DNA from: a virus
DNA: 64,000 bases
Virus record (IMG/VR): IMGVR_UViG_3300017917_002350
Coordinates: 6,723-70,722 of that record
Reading direction: 5' to 3' (one strand)
The notes below the pieces were generated by a model. That model was given only the letters and a program-made list of their open reading frames with translations. It was not told the DNA's origin and made no database searches. A program made the translations under genes and the position numbers. Positions 2,882 through 28,969 of the stretch are shown here, piece after piece (the stretch's first letter is position 1; each line of letters opens with the position of its first letter).

Positions 2882-3132
2882 TGGATTATCAAACCCACGC
2901 CAAAGAACTATTGCAAGAGTGGACATTGTGTTTGAATGCAAAACCCAAAAATGATGTTATTTCTATTCAAATTGAAAAAGATGTTTTAGGCATGTGGGCA
3001 GTAAATCTTATTCATATTCTGAATTGGGGATCAGATTCTGAACTAGCAGAGGCATGCCATCAATTTGAATCAAGACTAACATCTTTAAAACGTAAAATAA
3101 TAATGGAGGTATTACGTAATGGGTTTGTTTAG
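2881..3132 (+). CDS. hypothetical protein
   Basis: 83 aa ORF, coupled to neighbours. Confidence 0.6.
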   Translation: MDYQTHAKELLQEWTLCLNAKPKNDVISIQIEKDVLGMWAVNLIHILNWGSDSELAEACHQFESRLTSLKRKIIMEVLRNGFV

Positions 3133-3880
3133 AAACTCTCAAAGCAGTTACCAACACACACAATTTATTAGAGATCTACTGTATCAATATGACAGTTTTT
3201 TAGATAGCCTAGAAGTTGTTGCTGATTTTGGTTGTGGCGAAGGATTAGATATAGAATGGTGGGCCACACTTGAAACTAGAGATGACCCACCTGAACCTAG
3301 AAACTATCTTTGCTACGCTGTAGATAAAAATGTCAAACAAATTAAATCAGAAGTTGAAAGTTTGTCAAATGTTCGAGTAATTCAAGCAGACCTAGAAGAC
3401 CCAGACAGATTTATATCTCGCCAGATTGACCTAATCTGGTGTCATGATGTTTTTCAATATATGACCAATCCTGTTTATACATTACGTCAATGGAACGAAA
3501 TGATGAGTGTGAATGGTATGTTGGTAATGAGCATTCCGCAAGCGGTGCATTATGAACACAATAGATTAAACACTCTAAGTCATAATGGATGGTTCTTCAA
3601 TCACAATGTGGTAAACATGATGTATATGTTGGCTGTGAATGGATTCGATTGTCGCGATGCATATTTTTACAAAGATATAAACGATATGTGGTTACATATT
3701 GCAGTTTACAAAAGTGAAATACAACCAATGGATCCCAAAACAACTACATGGCATGATCTAATAGATGTCAAGCTAGTAAACGAAAGTGTTAAAACCTGCA
3801 TTGATCGTTATGGTTATGTACGTCAAGACGAATTACTTACAACCTGGCTGAATAAAGACTATTATAGAATCAAAGAATGA
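3119..3880 (+). CDS. class I SAM-dependent methyltransferase
   Basis: VADFGCGEG motif I, DLIWCHDVFQY, GMLVMSIP. Confidence 0.8.
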   Translation: MGLFRNSQSSYQHTQFIRDLLYQYDSFLDSLEVVADFGCGEGLDIEWWATLETRDDPPEPRNYLCYAVDKNVKQIKSEVESLSNVRVIQADLEDPDRFISRQIDLIWCHDVFQYMTNPVYTLRQWNEMMSVNGMLVMSIPQAVHYEHNRLNTLSHNGWFFNHNVVNMMYMLAVNGFDCRDAYFYKDINDMWLHIAVYKSEIQPMDPKTTTWHDLIDVKLVNESVKTCIDRYGYVRQDELLTTWLNKDYYRIKE

Positions 3881-3927
3881 AAATAGTTATTGTTACCGGC
3901 GGATTTGATCCAAGATTGGATAAATAA
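3877..3927 (+). pseudogene. orphan 5' fragment of cytidylyltransferase gene (MKIVIVTGGFDP-RLDK*)
   Basis: ATG overlaps the upstream stop (ATGA); encodes the TGGFDP start of the HxGH nucleotidyltransferase motif, then stops before the HNH gene. Confidence 0.75.
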
Positions 3928-3950
3928 GCATATAAAGGAATTTATATGTT
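3921..3950 (+). promoter_or_regulatory. late-type TAAATA promoter plus RBS/start-sequestering hairpin of the HNH gene
   Basis: TAAATA 3921-3926; stem CATATAAA-GGAA-TTTATATG (3929-3948) covers AAGGA and the ATG. Confidence 0.65.
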
Positions 3951-4608
3951 CGCTAATAACAAATATACTATTCTGTATTATAAAATTATTAATAATAGAA
4001 AATCAAACCCGTTTAACGGATATGTGGAAAAACACCACATAATACCAAGAAGTCTAAACGGATCAAATAAAAAAGAAAATCTAGTTGCACTTTCTGCTCG
4101 AGAACATTTTATATGTCATAGACTATTAGTTAAAATGACAACAGGACAAGATAAAGTTAAAATGTCTTATGCTATTAGAACGATGATGAATAGAGAAAAT
4201 GAATACCAACAAAGATATAAAATAACTTCTAAGGTATATGAGTCTATAATAGCAAATACCAAATCTATTATTGGGACTGCTCTCACAGGCAAAAATAATC
4301 CGTATTACGGTAAAAATCACACAGAGAATACTAAAAATAAAATGAAGGCTAGTCGAAAATTACAGGCGCCGCCTATGCTAGGAAAAACTCACAGTATGTG
4401 TACTAGAAATAAACTAAGAGAAGCTAATAAACTACAATTTAGTGATCCAAAACAAATTGAAATGAGACGAACAGGTTGCAATAAAATTCAAGGTATGAAG
4501 ATCTATCATAACTTAGATGGTAAAACAAAATACTTCGTTGAAGGAACACAACCCAGCGGGTGGGTAAAAGGCCGAGTACTGAAATCAAAAGGAGGTAGTA
4601 GTGAATAA
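3946..4608 (+). mobile_element. free-standing HNH homing endonuclease with NUMOD3-like repeats
   Basis: YVEKHHIIPRS..NLVALSAREHFICHRLL; NPYYGKNHTENTK and MLGKTHS NUMOD3-like motifs; interrupts a nucleotidyltransferase gene. Confidence 0.88.
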
Positions 4609-5378
4609 AATTGTTTTAGCTACTGGCGGCTTTTGATCCCCTACATTCAGGACATATCTCTTATTTAAATCACGCCGATCATTTAGGAGATTGGCTTATT
4701 GTTGGGCTTAATTCTGATGCATGGCTCTCACGTAAGAAAGGTAGACCATTTATGTCATGGCATGAGCGAATGACAGTGCTAGACAATCTGCACATGGTTG
4801 ACCGTGTAATTGAATTTGATGATAGCAACGATACTGCCATTGACGCTATTAAAAAAGTTAAAGAATTATTTCCAGGAAATCAAATTATTTTTGCCAATGG
4901 CGGAGATCGCACTGCACAAAACATACCCGAAATGATATTTGATGATGTGGAATTTGCGTTCGGAGTAGGCGGTGAGGACAAAAAAAATAGTAGCAGCGAT
5001 ATTCTTAAGCGTTGGACATCAATTGAAGTTCAAAGATCGTGGGGATCATACACAGTGCTCAACGAAATACCTGGTGCAAAAGTAAAAACTCTAGTAGTAC
5101 AACCGGGGCAAACTTTAAGCATGCAAAGACATCAACATAGAAGTGAATATTGGATGGTCACTGAAGGAACGTGTATGATCAACATGGCACTGCCCGAAGA
5201 CATGTCTAACCCACCAAAAATTTTAGGAAAATACGACGAATGGCGTGTGCCTCGAAACACATGGCATCAACTTACTAATCCGTTTACAAAACCCTGTACC
5301 ATAATAGAAATACAATACGGTGAAAAGTGCGAAGAAGAAGATATAGAGAGACTAGATTCCGCCAGTCAAGCAACGTAG
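4601..5378 (+). CDS. cytidylyltransferase-like (HxGH) + cupin (mannose-6-phosphate isomerase-like) fusion; needs +1 frameshift at 4631-4636
   Basis: GGAGG SD, GTG start, (M)NKIVLATGGF then TGA; the +1 frame reads DPLHSGHISYL..VGLNSD..RKKGRPFMSW, ANGGDR, then RSWGSY..SMQRHQHRSEYW..HQL..IEIQYG cupin. Confidence 0.8.
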
Positions 5379-5435
5379 ATACAAATCTGCTTGTCTTTGT
5401 CTGTATTCAATTATTGCCAGTATAATTTTACGCAT
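5352..5435 (-). CDS. putative 27 aa micropeptide (MRKIILAIIEYRQRQADLYLRCLTGGI)
   Basis: ATG overlaps the end of the 5428-5592 ORF; short, no other support. Confidence 0.3.
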   Translation of the reverse strand: MRKIILAIIEYRQRQADLYLRCLTGGI

Positions 5436-5674: not shown

Positions 5675-6856
5675 ATGCGCGAACTTATCAACATTCTTAC
5701 AGAAACAGCCACAAAACAAGATATACAAGATATACTTGCTCAGAACGGTTACACAGATCTAAAAATCTCCGGCAATAAGATTGCGGTGCTTGTACAAGTT
5801 CCTGATGGACAAATTAAAGATGCTTTTAGATTCAAAGTATTACAAGATTTAGAAGGCATAATGAATGCGGCCGATCCTGAACTCGATGCAAGATACAGTC
5901 CCTATCGAACCATCAGCAGCATCGGGCATATTGACTTTTGGGAAAGTCCGGTAAAATTGCTGGTCAAAGATAAGGGAGTGCAAGGTGATAAAAGTGCTGG
6001 TGTCGCAAACGAAATAGAACTTGCAGGTATTTTACAGAGCGTGATTGACAAATACGGATCAGCACACGTTACTTTTGTTGACCCTCGTGGTAAATCTCTT
6101 ACAATAAACAATTGCACCAAAGTAGATATTTCAGGTAGAGATGCCAAGGGAAGAAAAAAAGCCGATGTTGTTTTAGTAAGTCCAGATAGAAATCTTCCAA
6201 TATCCATTAAAAAACTAAATGCTGAAGCATGGGAAAGTGCAGATAATTTGTTTGGACAAAAGGCAAGAAATATAATTGATAAATTAGTAGATGATAAAGT
6301 TGTCAAACTTGATAAATTAGAAACATCATCGGATGCTCAACCAATATTTTCTTTAAGTAAGGAAATAGTAGTTGAACCCACCGAACAAGAAGCCATGTCC
6401 GCAATTTTTGGAAGCGACCTGAATCCACAAGGCGGCATTATAATCCAAACATTCAAGCCAGAACATTTTGTACAAGAAGAAAACAAAGTTCGAGTTGAAT
6501 GTCATGCTGTAATTACCAATAAAGAAGAAATTCCAGAAAGTCATTTAATGGTTTGGTTACTGCGTAACGACAGCAATAGAAACAGTAAAGCTCTTGGCAT
6601 TCGGGGCATCAGGATTATGGCAGTAACATTGACTAGAGGTATTGGCCGAACAGGTAAAAAAGATGTAATACTGGTTGATCAATATGGCAATGTGATTGAA
6701 AGAAACTTTGATCCAAGCGATGAACAAGACCAAGAAGTAACAACCAAGCAATTAAAACAGTTTGATCCAGAAAAAACTCGAGTCAAAATAAAGCCAAAAG
6801 GCAGACGTGCTGAACCTCGAGATAATGATTCTTCTCCAAGACAAAAAAGAGATTGA
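5675..6856 (+). CDS. late protein with PD-(D/E)xK nuclease-like motif
   Basis: TAAATA 5662-5667 upstream; MRELINILTE leader; E..KADVVL..PISIKK. Confidence 0.55.
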   Translation: MRELINILTETATKQDIQDILAQNGYTDLKISGNKIAVLVQVPDGQIKDAFRFKVLQDLEGIMNAADPELDARYSPYRTISSIGHIDFWESPVKLLVKDKGVQGDKSAGVANEIELAGILQSVIDKYGSAHVTFVDPRGKSLTINNCTKVDISGRDAKGRKKADVVLVSPDRNLPISIKKLNAEAWESADNLFGQKARNIIDKLVDDKVVKLDKLETSSDAQPIFSLSKEIVVEPTEQEAMSAIFGSDLNPQGGIIIQTFKPEHFVQEENKVRVECHAVITNKEEIPESHLMVWLLRNDSNRNSKALGIRGIRIMAVTLTRGIGRTGKKDVILVDQYGNVIERNFDPSDEQDQEVTTKQLKQFDPEKTRVKIKPKGRRAEPRDNDSSPRQKRD

Positions 6857-26729: not shown

Positions 26730-27462
26730 AGTGCGAATACTTTTGATTGGCGATAATGGAGTTGATCAATATCAATACGGCACTGTGACCAGAATCAGTC
26801 CCGAAGCGCCTGTGCCTGTGGTCAATTACACGCATACGATTGTTAAACCTGGAATGGCCGCAAATGTCAAAGACAATTTAGAAACACTAGGGTGCGAAGT
26901 TGAATTCGTACACGGGATCAAAACAAGTATCAAGACTAGAATAATAGATTCAAGAACCAAACAACATCTAGTAAGGATAGATCAAGATGCACCTAGTCGT
27001 GCCGTAAAAATTGACTATAACAACATAGAGCAGTATAATTGTATTATTGTAAGTGACTACAACAAAGGATCAGTGGAGTATGAAACGATTGAAAATCTTC
27101 GCAAGAATTACTCGGGTCCAATATTTGTTGATACGAAGAAAAGCGACTTGGCCCGCTTCGAAGGCTGTTTCGTTAAAATCAATCAGGTGGAATTTGAAGC
27201 GGCTAAAACATATCCTACTGATCTTATTGTTACCCTTGGGCGAGACGGTGTACGATATAAAGAACACAAGTTTTCTACTCCACAAGTAGAGGCGTTTGAT
27301 GTATGCGGGGCAGGTGATACTTTCTTGTCTGCTCTCGCATACAACTACGTTTTATCACAAGATATTACAACTGCGATTCAATTTGCAACTCGAGCAGCCA
27401 GTGTCACAGTACAACACATTGGTGTGTATAGCCCAACATTAGAAGAAATAGAACAGTCATGA
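26689..27462 (+). CDS. heptose-7-phosphate kinase (HldE/RfaE domain I, PfkB family)
   Basis: RISPEAPVPV, GMAANV, SDYNKG, DVCGAGDTF. Confidence 0.88.
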   Translation: MSAISQDPTANTSKVRILLIGDNGVDQYQYGTVTRISPEAPVPVVNYTHTIVKPGMAANVKDNLETLGCEVEFVHGIKTSIKTRIIDSRTKQHLVRIDQDAPSRAVKIDYNNIEQYNCIIVSDYNKGSVEYETIENLRKNYSGPIFVDTKKSDLARFEGCFVKINQVEFEAAKTYPTDLIVTLGRDGVRYKEHKFSTPQVEAFDVCGAGDTFLSALAYNYVLSQDITTAIQFATRAASVTVQHIGVYSPTLEEIEQS

Positions 27463-27827
27463 CTAGATTAACAGGACAAGTTGAAAAAGGGTGGGGATCA
27501 GAATTGATCTGGGCCACCAACGATCAATATTGTGGCAAGATGATGAATTTCAATCAAGGCGCACGATTTAGTATGCATTTTCATCGCGAGAAAGATGAAA
27601 CTTGGTATGTGCTTGGTGGCAAATTTATTGTTAAATGGATTGATACTAAAAGTGCAACACAGTACGAACAAGAATTAAAACAAGGGGATACTTGGCACAA
27701 TCCACCTTGTATGCCGCATCAGCTAATTTGCATAGAACAAGGTACTGTAATAGAAGTTTCCACACCAGATTCAGTAGAGGACAATTATCGTGTACAGCCC
27801 GGGGATAGCCAGAAGAGTATTAGTTAA
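27459..27827 (+). CDS. cupin protein (sugar isomerase-like)
   Basis: VEKGWGSE..SMHFHREKDETW..PH..EVST..DNYR. Confidence 0.8.
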   Translation: MTRLTGQVEKGWGSELIWATNDQYCGKMMNFNQGARFSMHFHREKDETWYVLGGKFIVKWIDTKSATQYEQELKQGDTWHNPPCMPHQLICIEQGTVIEVSTPDSVEDNYRVQPGDSQKSIS

Positions 27828-28209
27828 CGGTACTTTTGATATATTGCATCGTGGGCATATTGAGATGCTAAACTTTGCACGAAGTCAAGGTACTTATTTG
27901 TTAGTGGCAATTGACAGTGATCGTCAAGTCAAGGAACTAAAAGGCCAATCAAGACCAATCAACAATCAAGAAGATCGTAAGTTTGCATTAGATAATTTAC
28001 AAGCTGTTGATGCTGTTTGGATTTTTGACACACAAGCAGAATTAGAACACATTTGTAAAGTGTATCGACCAGATTTAATGGTAAAAGGCAGTGATTATCT
28101 TGGTAAAAAAATTACCGGGTCGCAGTATTGTGGCAATATTAAATACTATCCGTTAGTACAAAACTATTCGACAAGTAAAATAATTGAAAATATTAATAAC
28201 CGGAAGTAG
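27790..28209 (+). CDS. heptose-1-phosphate adenylyltransferase (HldE/RfaE domain II)
   Basis: VNGTFDILHRGH, DSD..LKG..RPIN, VKGSDY, YSTSKII. Confidence 0.88.
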   Translation: MYSPGIARRVLVNGTFDILHRGHIEMLNFARSQGTYLLVAIDSDRQVKELKGQSRPINNQEDRKFALDNLQAVDAVWIFDTQAELEHICKVYRPDLMVKGSDYLGKKITGSQYCGNIKYYPLVQNYSTSKIIENINNRK

Positions 28210-28969
28210 AGGCTTTATTGGAAGCCATGCTGTAAGTTTTTGGCACAAGATTGGTGGCCATGAAATTTATACCTATGAGTGGGACGAGCGCACATTACCG
28301 CGCATCGACGGCCTAGATTGGGTGTTTCATTTTGGTGCCATTAGTAGTACTACAGAACGAGATGTTGCACGAGTAATACGACAAAATTACGACTTTAGCA
28401 TTTGGTTGTATGAGGAATGTAGAAAACATGATGTCAATCTTCAATGGTCGAGTTCTGCGAGCGTGTATGGCCTTGGTAGCGTTTTCACAGAGTCCGCCCC
28501 CGTGGATCCCAGGAGTCCCTATGCGTGGTCAAAATATCTATTCGAACATTACATTGACTGTAATCCGACGCATGTTCGGTGCCAGGGATTTAGGTACTTT
28601 AATGTCTATGGTGCAAACGAAATGCACAAAGGAAACCAAGCCAGCCCACACTATCAGTTTGCTGTTCAAGCTCAGTCCACTGGTGTTATAAAAGTGTTTG
28701 AAGGCAGTGAGCATTTCCGTAGAGATTTTGTTCCTGTTGAACATGTTTTATCAGTGCAGCATCAATTCATCAAACAAGCGGTAGACAAAAATGGTATTTG
28801 GAATATAGGCACAGGCACCACTAGATCTTTTATGGATATCGCTAGAGAAAAAGCCAATCAATACGGTGCACTGATTGAACAAATACCATTTCCAGAACAT
28901 TTGAGTTACAGCTATCAACGCTACACTTGTGCAGACTTAACAAAATTGCAACAAACAATCCGTGTTTGA
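28184..28969 (+). CDS. hldD: ADP-glyceromanno-heptose 6-epimerase-like (HldD/GmhD)
   Basis: TGSRGFIG, HFGAISSTTE, SSASVYG, YAWSK, RYFNVYG..E.HKG, YQRYTCAD. Confidence 0.82.
   Translation: MKILITGSRGFIGSHAVSFWHKIGGHEIYTYEWDERTLPRIDGLDWVFHFGAISSTTERDVARVIRQNYDFSIWLYEECRKHDVNLQWSSSASVYGLGSVFTESAPVDPRSPYAWSKYLFEHYIDCNPTHVRCQGFRYFNVYGANEMHKGNQASPHYQFAVQAQSTGVIKVFEGSEHFRRDFVPVEHVLSVQHQFIKQAVDKNGIWNIGTGTTRSFMDIAREKANQYGALIEQIPFPEHLSYSYQRYTCADLTKLQQTIRV

Follow-up and report, generated by a model that had tools for sequence, protein, structure and literature searches.

The stretch analyzed here (the window: 64,000 nucleotides (nt), positions 6,723 to 70,722 of the IMG/VR virus record IMGVR_UViG_3300017917_002350, one strand, 5' to 3') contains a sugar-nucleotide enzyme gene of the cytidylyltransferase-cupin type whose beginning is present twice, on either side of a free-standing HNH endonuclease gene, and whose second beginning runs into a TGA stop one base out of register with the rest of the enzyme. 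The viral contig measures 70.7 kb, with a CheckV completeness of 15%, and its source is probably a large T4-like phage, because a UvsY-like protein is encoded just upstream. The insertion follows codon 12 of the enzyme gene (GAYCC; GATCC in the window), and the features of the locus are collected in Table 1. A preliminary description had noted a duplicated gene start, the truncation of its first copy, the HNH gene, a new Shine-Dalgarno (SD) sequence with a GTG start, a TTT-TGA stop and the repeat TTTGATCC at both ends of the insert; compared with the sequence and the list of open reading frames (ORFs), all of these statements are correct.

Table 1. Features at the interrupted cytidylyltransferase-cupin gene (positions of the window; aa, amino acids; SAM, S-adenosylmethionine)
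Feature	Position	Strand	Basis
SAM-dependent methyltransferase gene	3119..3880	+	ORF list; Pfam Methyltransf_11/31/12
Copy 1, original host start, cut after GATCC (3911)	3877..3927	+	Sequence and ORF list
Left TTTGATCC, host side of the 8-nt repeat	3904..3911	+	X3 joint 3903 to 4632
Mobile cassette, 728 nt	3912..4639 (equivalently 3904-4631)	+	X3 contig skip and identity-tract edges
Stop block ATAAATAA, left cassette end	3920..3927	+	Kept across cassette types
HNH homing endonuclease gene, 220 aa, free-standing	3946..4608	+	Pfam, PHROG and GenBank matches
AGGAGG SD of the replacement start, within the end of the HNH ORF	4590..4595	+	Sequence
Copy 2 (ORF0): GTG 4601, (M)NKIVLATGGF, TGA 4634-4636	4601..4636	+	Sequence
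Proposed +1 shift site TTT_TGA_T	4631..4637	+	TTTTGA in 26/26 variants
+1-frame ORF from GAT 4635, DPLHSGH..., 247 codons to stop	4635..5378	+	Pfam

The original start of the enzyme gene (copy 1) begins at an ATG that the TGA stop of the methyltransferase gene overlaps (ATGA), as it does in most of 80 cassette-free relatives. From ATG 3877 the frame reads MKIVIVTGGFDP, continues through the cassette-encoded residues RLDK and ends at TAA 3925-3927; its product is probably a discarded 16-aa peptide (12 + 4 aa). The stop block ATAAATAA has stops in two frames and closes the truncated host ORF just 5' of the SD of the HNH gene, which has its own ATG start and whose ORF fills the insert. The stop codon of that ORF, TAA 4606-4608, is overlapped by the replacement start of the enzyme gene (copy 2), which leads into a run of four T (4631-4634). 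The cassette thus spans the stop block, the HNH gene and the replacement start with its extra T. Since the eight letters of TTTGATCC, present at 3904-3911 and again at 4632-4639, fit on both sides, the exact insertion junction is ambiguous. The +1-frame ORF beyond the TGA encodes the rest of the cytidylyltransferase (CTP_transf_like) and a cupin of the mannose-6-phosphate-isomerase type (Pfam).

The HNH ORF matches the Pfam families NUMOD3 (3e-14) and HNH (22.5 bits, cut-off 21.4) as well as PHROG 655, 'homing endonuclease' (1.6e-37), and residues H30, H31, N41, N45, H54 and H58 are invariant in an alignment of eight homologues. The best protein match among GenBank phages is an annotated MobE of Sinorhizobium phage phiN3 (40.6%), and 'homing endonuclease' genes of T-even phages match at 32.7%. 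Judged by these matches, the nuclease is a Mob-like HNH/NUMOD3 homing endonuclease of the Mob group of T4-like phages. Directly 5' of one conserved phage gene, six further loci (L152, L157, L165, L164, L147 and L186) have HNH genes that are also Mob-like, though more distant (35-54% identity). The conserved gene opens (M)PRLSLY(K/R)PEKG.DY.FIDRQ from an ATG, GTG or TTG start codon; at L152 and L157 it has no visible canonical start, and an ATT follows AGGAG. A nuclease cassette may have rewritten the beginning of this gene as well.

The preliminary description had proposed to check whether the critical run holds four T or three. Across 4631-4636, contigs of three independent studies (X2 record 9, X3 record 16 and X5 record 25) have the four T without an indel, and relatives have them as well, so that a refutation by sequencing error fails. 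In IMG/VR, 29 loci match the frameshifted motif exactly, 26 of which are true frameshifts; the other three (L101, L106 and L116) are in-frame genes reading GGG GGT TTT GAT and were dropped. L038 is likewise in frame. A metagenome search with the HNH alignment yielded 80 retained loci, among them 12 (L129-L140) that cover most of the HNH protein at identities of at least 58%, and in 11 of these 12 TTTTGA lies just 3' of the nuclease gene. After removal of duplicates, 26 distinct variants remain, including the window, several of them assembled in more than one metagenome, and all 26 combine TTTTGA with an SD, a start codon and a peptide ending in TGGF, encoding HNH proteins 53-70% identical to that of the window. 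As a control, the pattern was sought in 185,579 prokaryote species (one genome each), where it matches seven places and only one true cassette; the other six matches were rejected as in-frame genes (G-A/V-F-D-P, from GGG GGT/GCT TTT GAY). The true cassette (L214; JBDNIA010000151.1:24405-26835) lies on a 44.6-kb contig assigned to a genome labelled Crocinitomicaceae. This contig is a phage sequence that was binned together with its host, or else it was mis-binned, so that it hints at the host weakly at best.

Genes without the insertion provide the complementary comparison. Neither the HNH gene nor the cassette frameshift is present in the 80 closest relatives of the enzyme gene, 79 of which read straight through M..TGGFDPxHxGH. 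The remaining one has a 13-nt deletion within its first codons (L009:2960-3010; ATGAAAAT/GGTGGATTTGATCC) that puts the ATG out of frame, which makes it a broken allele or an assembly error. The alignment of relatives with and without the HNH gene, also suggested beforehand, accordingly has the extra T going with the cassette, all 80 nearest enzyme genes being empty. A blastn search of 3100-5400 against GenBank phages gave no match, and hence no cultured phage with the cassette; the best GenBank phage protein match of the enzyme is at 49%, in cyanophages. The window also holds a second cytidylyltransferase-like gene (27790-28209, within 27459-28969), uninterrupted and RfaE-domain-II-like, with the motif NGTFDILHRGH; its motif DNA, GGTACTTTTGATAT, is unlike the target of the cassette, and its neighbors, a cupin gene on one side and a nucleotide-sugar epimerase gene on the other, suggest a heptose-nucleotide cluster.

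HNH homologues at 53-70% identity with their flanks retained all show one shared arrangement, in which copy 1, ending GG.TTYGAYCC, is followed by the stop block, the SD and ATG of the HNH gene, a strong SD with an overlapping start, and 10-12 codons leading to GGN TTT TGA. The strong SD lies 5-9 nt ahead of the copy-2 start in all aligned variants. In five phages (L082, L086, L087, L129 and L130) the cassette is 99-100% identical over ~700 nt, whereas the upstream flanks are 40-77% identical and the identity of the downstream genes falls from 82% to 50%; L091 and L098 likewise share an identical cassette between flanks that are ~40-60% identical. The edges of the identity tract are sharp: it starts right after the host GAYCC and ends ~17 nt past TTTTGA (3912-4639 in window coordinates), placing the nuclease gene, the replacement segment and the shift site inside one tract in five hosts. 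Because near-identical cassettes occur in phages with diverged flanks, the cassette is, on this comparison, a mobile unit that replaces the start of its target gene, and we regard this anatomy as close to certain. The preliminary proposal that the insert equips the interrupted gene with a new start is borne out by the same architecture in 26 variants and by the near-identity of cassettes in diverged genomes.

Two further observations concern the insertion site. A 191-nt DNA contig (X3 record 14, depth 4.9) joins 3794-3903 to 4632-4712, with exactly 728 nt absent; left of the joint it matches the window throughout, and right of it 11 of 81 bases differ, which makes it an empty-site allele from the same habitat, with apparent one-sided co-conversion. 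At L098:2387-2500 (L127 is on the same contig), a third, partial copy of the gene start precedes copy 1; it reads ATG AAA ATT GTA CTT TGC ACT GGC GGA, then 26 other bases, and its stop overlaps a second identical ATG start. This third copy may be the scar of an earlier invasion or a tandem duplication.

To characterize the replacement start, 12 distinct copy-2 sequences were tallied by hand from the aligned sequences. The last four codons always encode T-G-G-F, with synonymous variation only in the T-G-G codons (ACT/ACA/ACC/ACG; GGC/GGA; GGC/GGA/GGG), and the residues ahead of TGGF vary conservatively (NKIVLA, NRVILV, KIVLV, QVALI, RTKIVIA and KIVLC). In the downstream frame, these bases translate into peptides that vary and contain stops. 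Since the T-G-G codons differ at synonymous sites only, copy 2 looks translated. Structural comparisons bear on the need for this segment: in solved homologues (e.g., TagD, 1coz, and ethanolamine-phosphate cytidylyltransferase, 3elb), 10-16 residues precede the position aligned with D1 of the +1 ORF. Reading through the site with TTTT as F gives a 258-aa product (P0001) with the predicted start (M)NKIVLATGGFDPLH and the junction peptide ...ATGGFDPLHSGH. The CTP_transf_like match of P0001 starts at profile position 2 and scores 47.9 bits, compared with position 7 and 39.5 bits without the N-terminus. In an AlphaFold model built from 33 sequences (mean predicted local distance difference test score (pLDDT) 88.3), residues 3-9 form strand beta-1, which leads into the HxGH helix, and residues 1-10 have a pLDDT of 94. 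As modeled, the enzyme looks to need its N-terminus.

The carriers differ in what has become of the nuclease (Table 2). Ten variants in which the HNH gene is deleted or crippled keep the frameshifted start, and they represent about seven independent loss events. In 22 variants the +1 ORF stays open for 236-250 codons, and in L087 and L132 the contig ends before the ORF does. Among the 24 variants whose +1 ORF can be assessed, it is intact in 23; in L104 it encodes a complete stand-alone cytidylyltransferase of 135 codons, without a cupin. The nuclease-less L105 has MQVALITGGF as its copy 2, a conservative divergence that keeps the frame. Copy 1 has fared differently from copy 2. Its ATG is missing in four variants with an intact HNH gene (L092, L093, L131 and L132); in the last two, a shorter form of copy 1 that starts with GTG may persist. 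The ten variants with a deleted or crippled HNH gene have all lost copy 1 as a separate unit, its first ten codons being fused to the HNH remnant in L094, L138 and L139. Copy 1, to judge from its sequence across these carriers, is dispensable.

Table 2. State of the HNH gene in the 26 distinct cassette variants (WIN, the window)
State of the HNH gene	Variants	n
Full-length	WIN, L082, L086, L087, L088, L091, L092, L093, L098, L121, L128, L129, L130, L131, L132	15
Residues 1-39 lost, including HH of the motif; deletion fusing copy 1 to HNH	L094, L138, L139	3
Reduced to 82 or 37 C-terminal residues	L097, L099	2
Absent; only cassette SD, start and copy 2	L103, L104, L105, L113, L118	5
Contig begins inside HNH	L140	1

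We propose that the element is a mobile cassette whose host gene is probably expressed by +1 ribosomal frameshifting at UUU_UGA. The truncated host ORF would end at the stop block, the HNH gene would be translated from its own SD, and ribosomes would restart at the copy-2 start that overlaps the nuclease stop. At codon 11, Phe-tRNA would occupy UUU in the P site with UGA in the A site awaiting release factor 2 (RF2), and a +1 slip would place it onto the overlapping UUU; reading would then resume at GAY CCN to give the full enzyme, which would be made only via this slip. One T inserted before GAY necessarily creates a TGA, and hence the TTT_TGA_Y site. In all 26 variants the P-site UUU can re-pair, the +1 codon being again UUU, and the zero-frame TGA stop follows. 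In the literature on recoding, a minority of species are described as shifting at UUU_U in prfB, and UUU_Ynn as shift-prone (PMC5009743); UUU UGA is included in a list of +1 slippery sequences (PMC3500957). The earlier suggestion that expression may depend on recoding is supported by the comparison with relatives, through TTTTGA in 26 variants, and the frameshift itself we infer.

Several observations weigh against this proposal. Among the sequencing runs, none of RNA was listed as containing the stretch. According to PMC5009743, CUU_U is far more efficient than UUU_U in the prfB context. The internal SD that lies three bases 5' of the shift codon in prfB is absent here, where only GGNGGN abuts TTT and the initiation SD is ~36-40 nt 5' of the shift site. 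Folding of the alignment revealed no conserved RNA structure at the shift site (consensus -0.95 kcal/mol, no covariation). The stop is UGA-U in 21 of the 26 variants, not the weak UGA-C context. In L118, the only carrier with a second lesion, the +1 ORF is broken by a further frameshift. Open downstream ORFs in carriers with an intact HNH gene say little: the host genes of these carriers differ at a synonymous divergence (dS) of 0.7-2.2 though their cassettes are identical, which makes the insertions recent, and their ratio of nonsynonymous to synonymous divergence (dN/dS), 0.06-0.28, mostly reflects history before the insertion. Finally, the T shared by the variants could be inherited from one founder. 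Because we found no stimulator and most variants have UGA-U, the efficiency of the shift may be low.

Some details at and around the shift site are recorded here in their own right. UGA-C occurs in five of the 26 variants (L088, L097, L103, L104 and L105), in four of which the HNH gene is absent or a remnant; this is a hint only. In the window alone, a hairpin would pair the SD region AUCAAAAG with the shift site CUUUUGAU (4584-4637), at -30.7 kcal/mol for a 120-nt stretch (z -2.4); this pairing is not conserved in a 19-sequence alignment. L118 is identical to L113 save for one indel (L118:1810-1830), by which its +1 ORF is broken after ~100-112 codons. The dN/dS values were considered as proof of function after insertion and rejected, the divergence of the host genes predating it.

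Other explanations of the locus must be set against frameshifting. To a homopolymer error in sequencing or assembly, with TTT as the true sequence, we give virtually no credence: only one base differs, and it lies inside a T run, yet three independent studies' contigs show four T with no indel, and 25 further variants have the same extra T, always together with cassette sequence. Scarcely more credible is an intron, of group I or another kind, spliced between the TTTGATCC repeats and joining copy 1 to the +1 ORF. Phage HNH genes often sit in group I introns, and joining at the repeat would restore GGFDPLHSGH in frame; however, a search of 3500-5200 against Rfam at E ≤ 10 found no intron family, only three chance-level snoRNA/cis-regulatory matches. 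The insert has just 34 nt before the HNH ORF and ~30 nt after it, the latter coding for copy 2, and no register within TTTGATCC combines a U ahead of the 5' splice site with a G as the last base of the intron. Loss of the copy-1 ATG in four carriers with an intact nuclease, and of any separate copy 1 in ten more, also speaks against splicing, and the sole 728-nt skip comes from a DNA run and has the diverged right flank of an empty-site allele. The preliminary view of an intron-less arrangement is thereby upheld: Rfam finds no intron, the insert is nearly all ORF, and copy 1 is lost or decayed in many carriers. Reassignment of TGA (codes 4 or 25) was rejected, as frame 0 soon meets a TAA and the conserved protein lies in the +1 frame, and transcriptional slippage was considered unlikely, the four-T run being shorter than the runs known for it.

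The remaining alternatives accept the cassette and differ in what becomes of the enzyme. A truncated product might suffice, made by restarting at ATG 4752, which opens a 208-aa ORF in the right frame with the cupin domain wholly downstream; this protein would be mainly cupin, would lack HxGH and would need no frameshift. Such a restart leaves unexplained why the cassette has a start, an SD and ten conserved codons running exactly into the shift site; no SD is seen before 4752, and L104, a cytidylyltransferase without a cupin, still has the frameshifted start. We consider it very improbable. Equally little can be said for a different mode of recoding, by a -2 shift or by a tRNA of phage or host with an enlarged anticodon loop that reads UUUU as a quadruplet. 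The protein outcome would be identical, and with only ~15% of the genome on the contig (CheckV), phage tRNAs could lie elsewhere; on the other side, the 64-kb window holds no tRNA gene, the sole tRNA in seven related loci scanned is the tRNA-Leu(TAA) of L104, and dependence on a special tRNA would be improbable for a cassette found in such dissimilar phages, so that this alternative too seems most unlikely. (The tRNA-Leu(TAA) gene, at L104:1591-1666, lies directly 5' of the nuclease-less frameshifted start.) A more serious competitor is a selfish knock-out, in which a dispensable gene has been inactivated, too little time has passed since the insertion for the ORF to decay, and the SD, start, N-terminus and TTTTGA are leftovers from an ancestor. 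The identical cassettes in hosts at dS 0.7-2.2, where ORF integrity is uninformative, fit this account, as do the second frameshift of L118, the weakness of UUU_U relative to CUU_U in the prfB context and the lack of a stimulator. Against it, copy 2 retains its SD, start and T-G-G-F with synonymous change only, while the HNH protein has diverged to 53-70% identity and copy 1 decays; the nuclease has been lost about seven times (ten variants), compared with one broken enzyme ORF in 24; and the MQVALITGGF of L105 is a conservative change in frame. On balance we judge the knock-out unlikely and +1 frameshifting at UUU_UGA the probable reading.

The extra T may also serve the nuclease side of the cassette. 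It is the sole consistent difference of copy 2 from uninvaded sites (ACN GGN GGN TTT GAY CC), and it would displace the half-sites of the nuclease target by one base, sparing the carrier from its own nuclease. We advance this self-protection role tentatively, as falling slightly short of an even chance. We are just as hesitant about the combined proposal, in which the extra T would do both jobs, conferring immunity to the nuclease and creating a UUU_UGA shifty stop that is slipped without any further stimulator. A precedent is the MobA element, which is described as having an insert-encoded homologous replacement region together with a recoding insert that blocks self-nicking (bioRxiv 10.1101/2022.08.31.505936; PMC5009743); according to the preprint, the polymorphisms of the replacement segment did not block nicking and the recoding insert did (bioRxiv 10.1101/2022.08.31.505936). 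A marine contig (TARA; L137:1430-2260) with a 60%-identical HNH protein has the duplicated-start layout without the frameshift. Its copy 1 is MVETIVLVTGGFD followed by SV and a stop, and its copy 2 is MTETIVLATGGWDPIHRGH, in frame (GGW-DPIHRGH), with TGG where the others have TTT(T); this TGG is a second way of altering exactly the same spot.

Among known systems, the closest parallel is the mobA/gene 60 cassette of phage T4, which combines the HNH nuclease MobA with a 50-nt translational bypass (Bonocora et al. 2011 PNAS, as cited in PMC5009743; bioRxiv 10.1101/2022.08.31.505936). It resembles the present cassette in that a Mob-family HNH gene lies inside a conserved enzyme gene, the insert encodes a diverged copy of the target (HomR there, copy 2 here), the nuclease ORF is overlapped by the start of the downstream ORF, and the replacement segment is directly followed by a recoding signal; in both, the unit moves into diverged phages and nuclease-less derivatives keep the recoding element. 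By the same accounts, the two differ in the recoding itself, with one extra T and no coding gap here as opposed to a 50-nt hop with take-off and landing GGA, a nascent-peptide signal and a hairpin; in the products, with a whole new start near the 5' end here and two working polypeptides with C- and N-terminal extension (CTE/NTE) tails there; and in the target, a cytidylyltransferase-cupin here and a topoisomerase there. Protection from self-nicking has been shown for MobA, and here we infer it.

Comparison with prfB (CUU_UGA_C) concerns the shift site. In both, a short ORF0 ends in UGA (after 11 codons here and 25 in Escherichia coli prfB), the functional protein lies in the +1 frame, and the P-site tRNA would re-pair with an overlapping UUU; unlike prfB, the cassette has no internal SD, no autoregulatory logic, UGA-U in most variants, and UUU in place of CUU in the P site. 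The preliminary description had likened the locus to mobE splitting nrdA in Aeromonas phage Aeh1, a comparison that gives way to the HNH-plus-bypass cassette of T4. Aeh1 mobE, too, is free-standing, encodes a Mob-like HNH protein and interrupts an enzyme gene with neither intron nor intein involved; there, however, the gene halves yield two polypeptides that reassemble, and neither a duplicated start nor recoding is known. The 'savior' or compensatory indels of the G-run in herpesvirus thymidine kinase are similar in that a one-base indel is beneficial, at the level of the DNA or of a drug, and low-level frameshifting supplies enough product, and they are unlike the cassette in being drug-escape mutations of an animal virus, with no mobile element and no conserved architecture (PMC5009743). 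Literature searches for an HNH-plus-frameshift cassette found no description, with the limit that preprint supplements (Table S1, File S1) might list related elements.

If our reading is correct, the cassette would be the second natural combination of a homing endonuclease with recoding, after T4 mobA/gene 60, and the first with +1 frameshifting. The bypass of T4 gene 60 has long been treated as isolated, and its link to mobA is the only documented case in which a homing cassette has a recoding signal of its own. The present cassette is represented by at least 26 distinct variants, found in both freshwater and marine phages, some of which are nuclease-less derivatives that keep the frameshift. 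It would offer an intron-free and intein-free route for insertion inside a conserved gene motif, and a +1 frameshift site that is minimal, portable and active 11 codons downstream of initiation. It would also give annotation a pattern to recognize, a duplicated gene start with an HNH gene and TTTTGA, which is currently called a broken gene. Should both the frameshift and the protection hold, selfish nucleases could drive the origin of programmed frameshifts, and the immunity that such nucleases require could be a repeated source of recoding signals.

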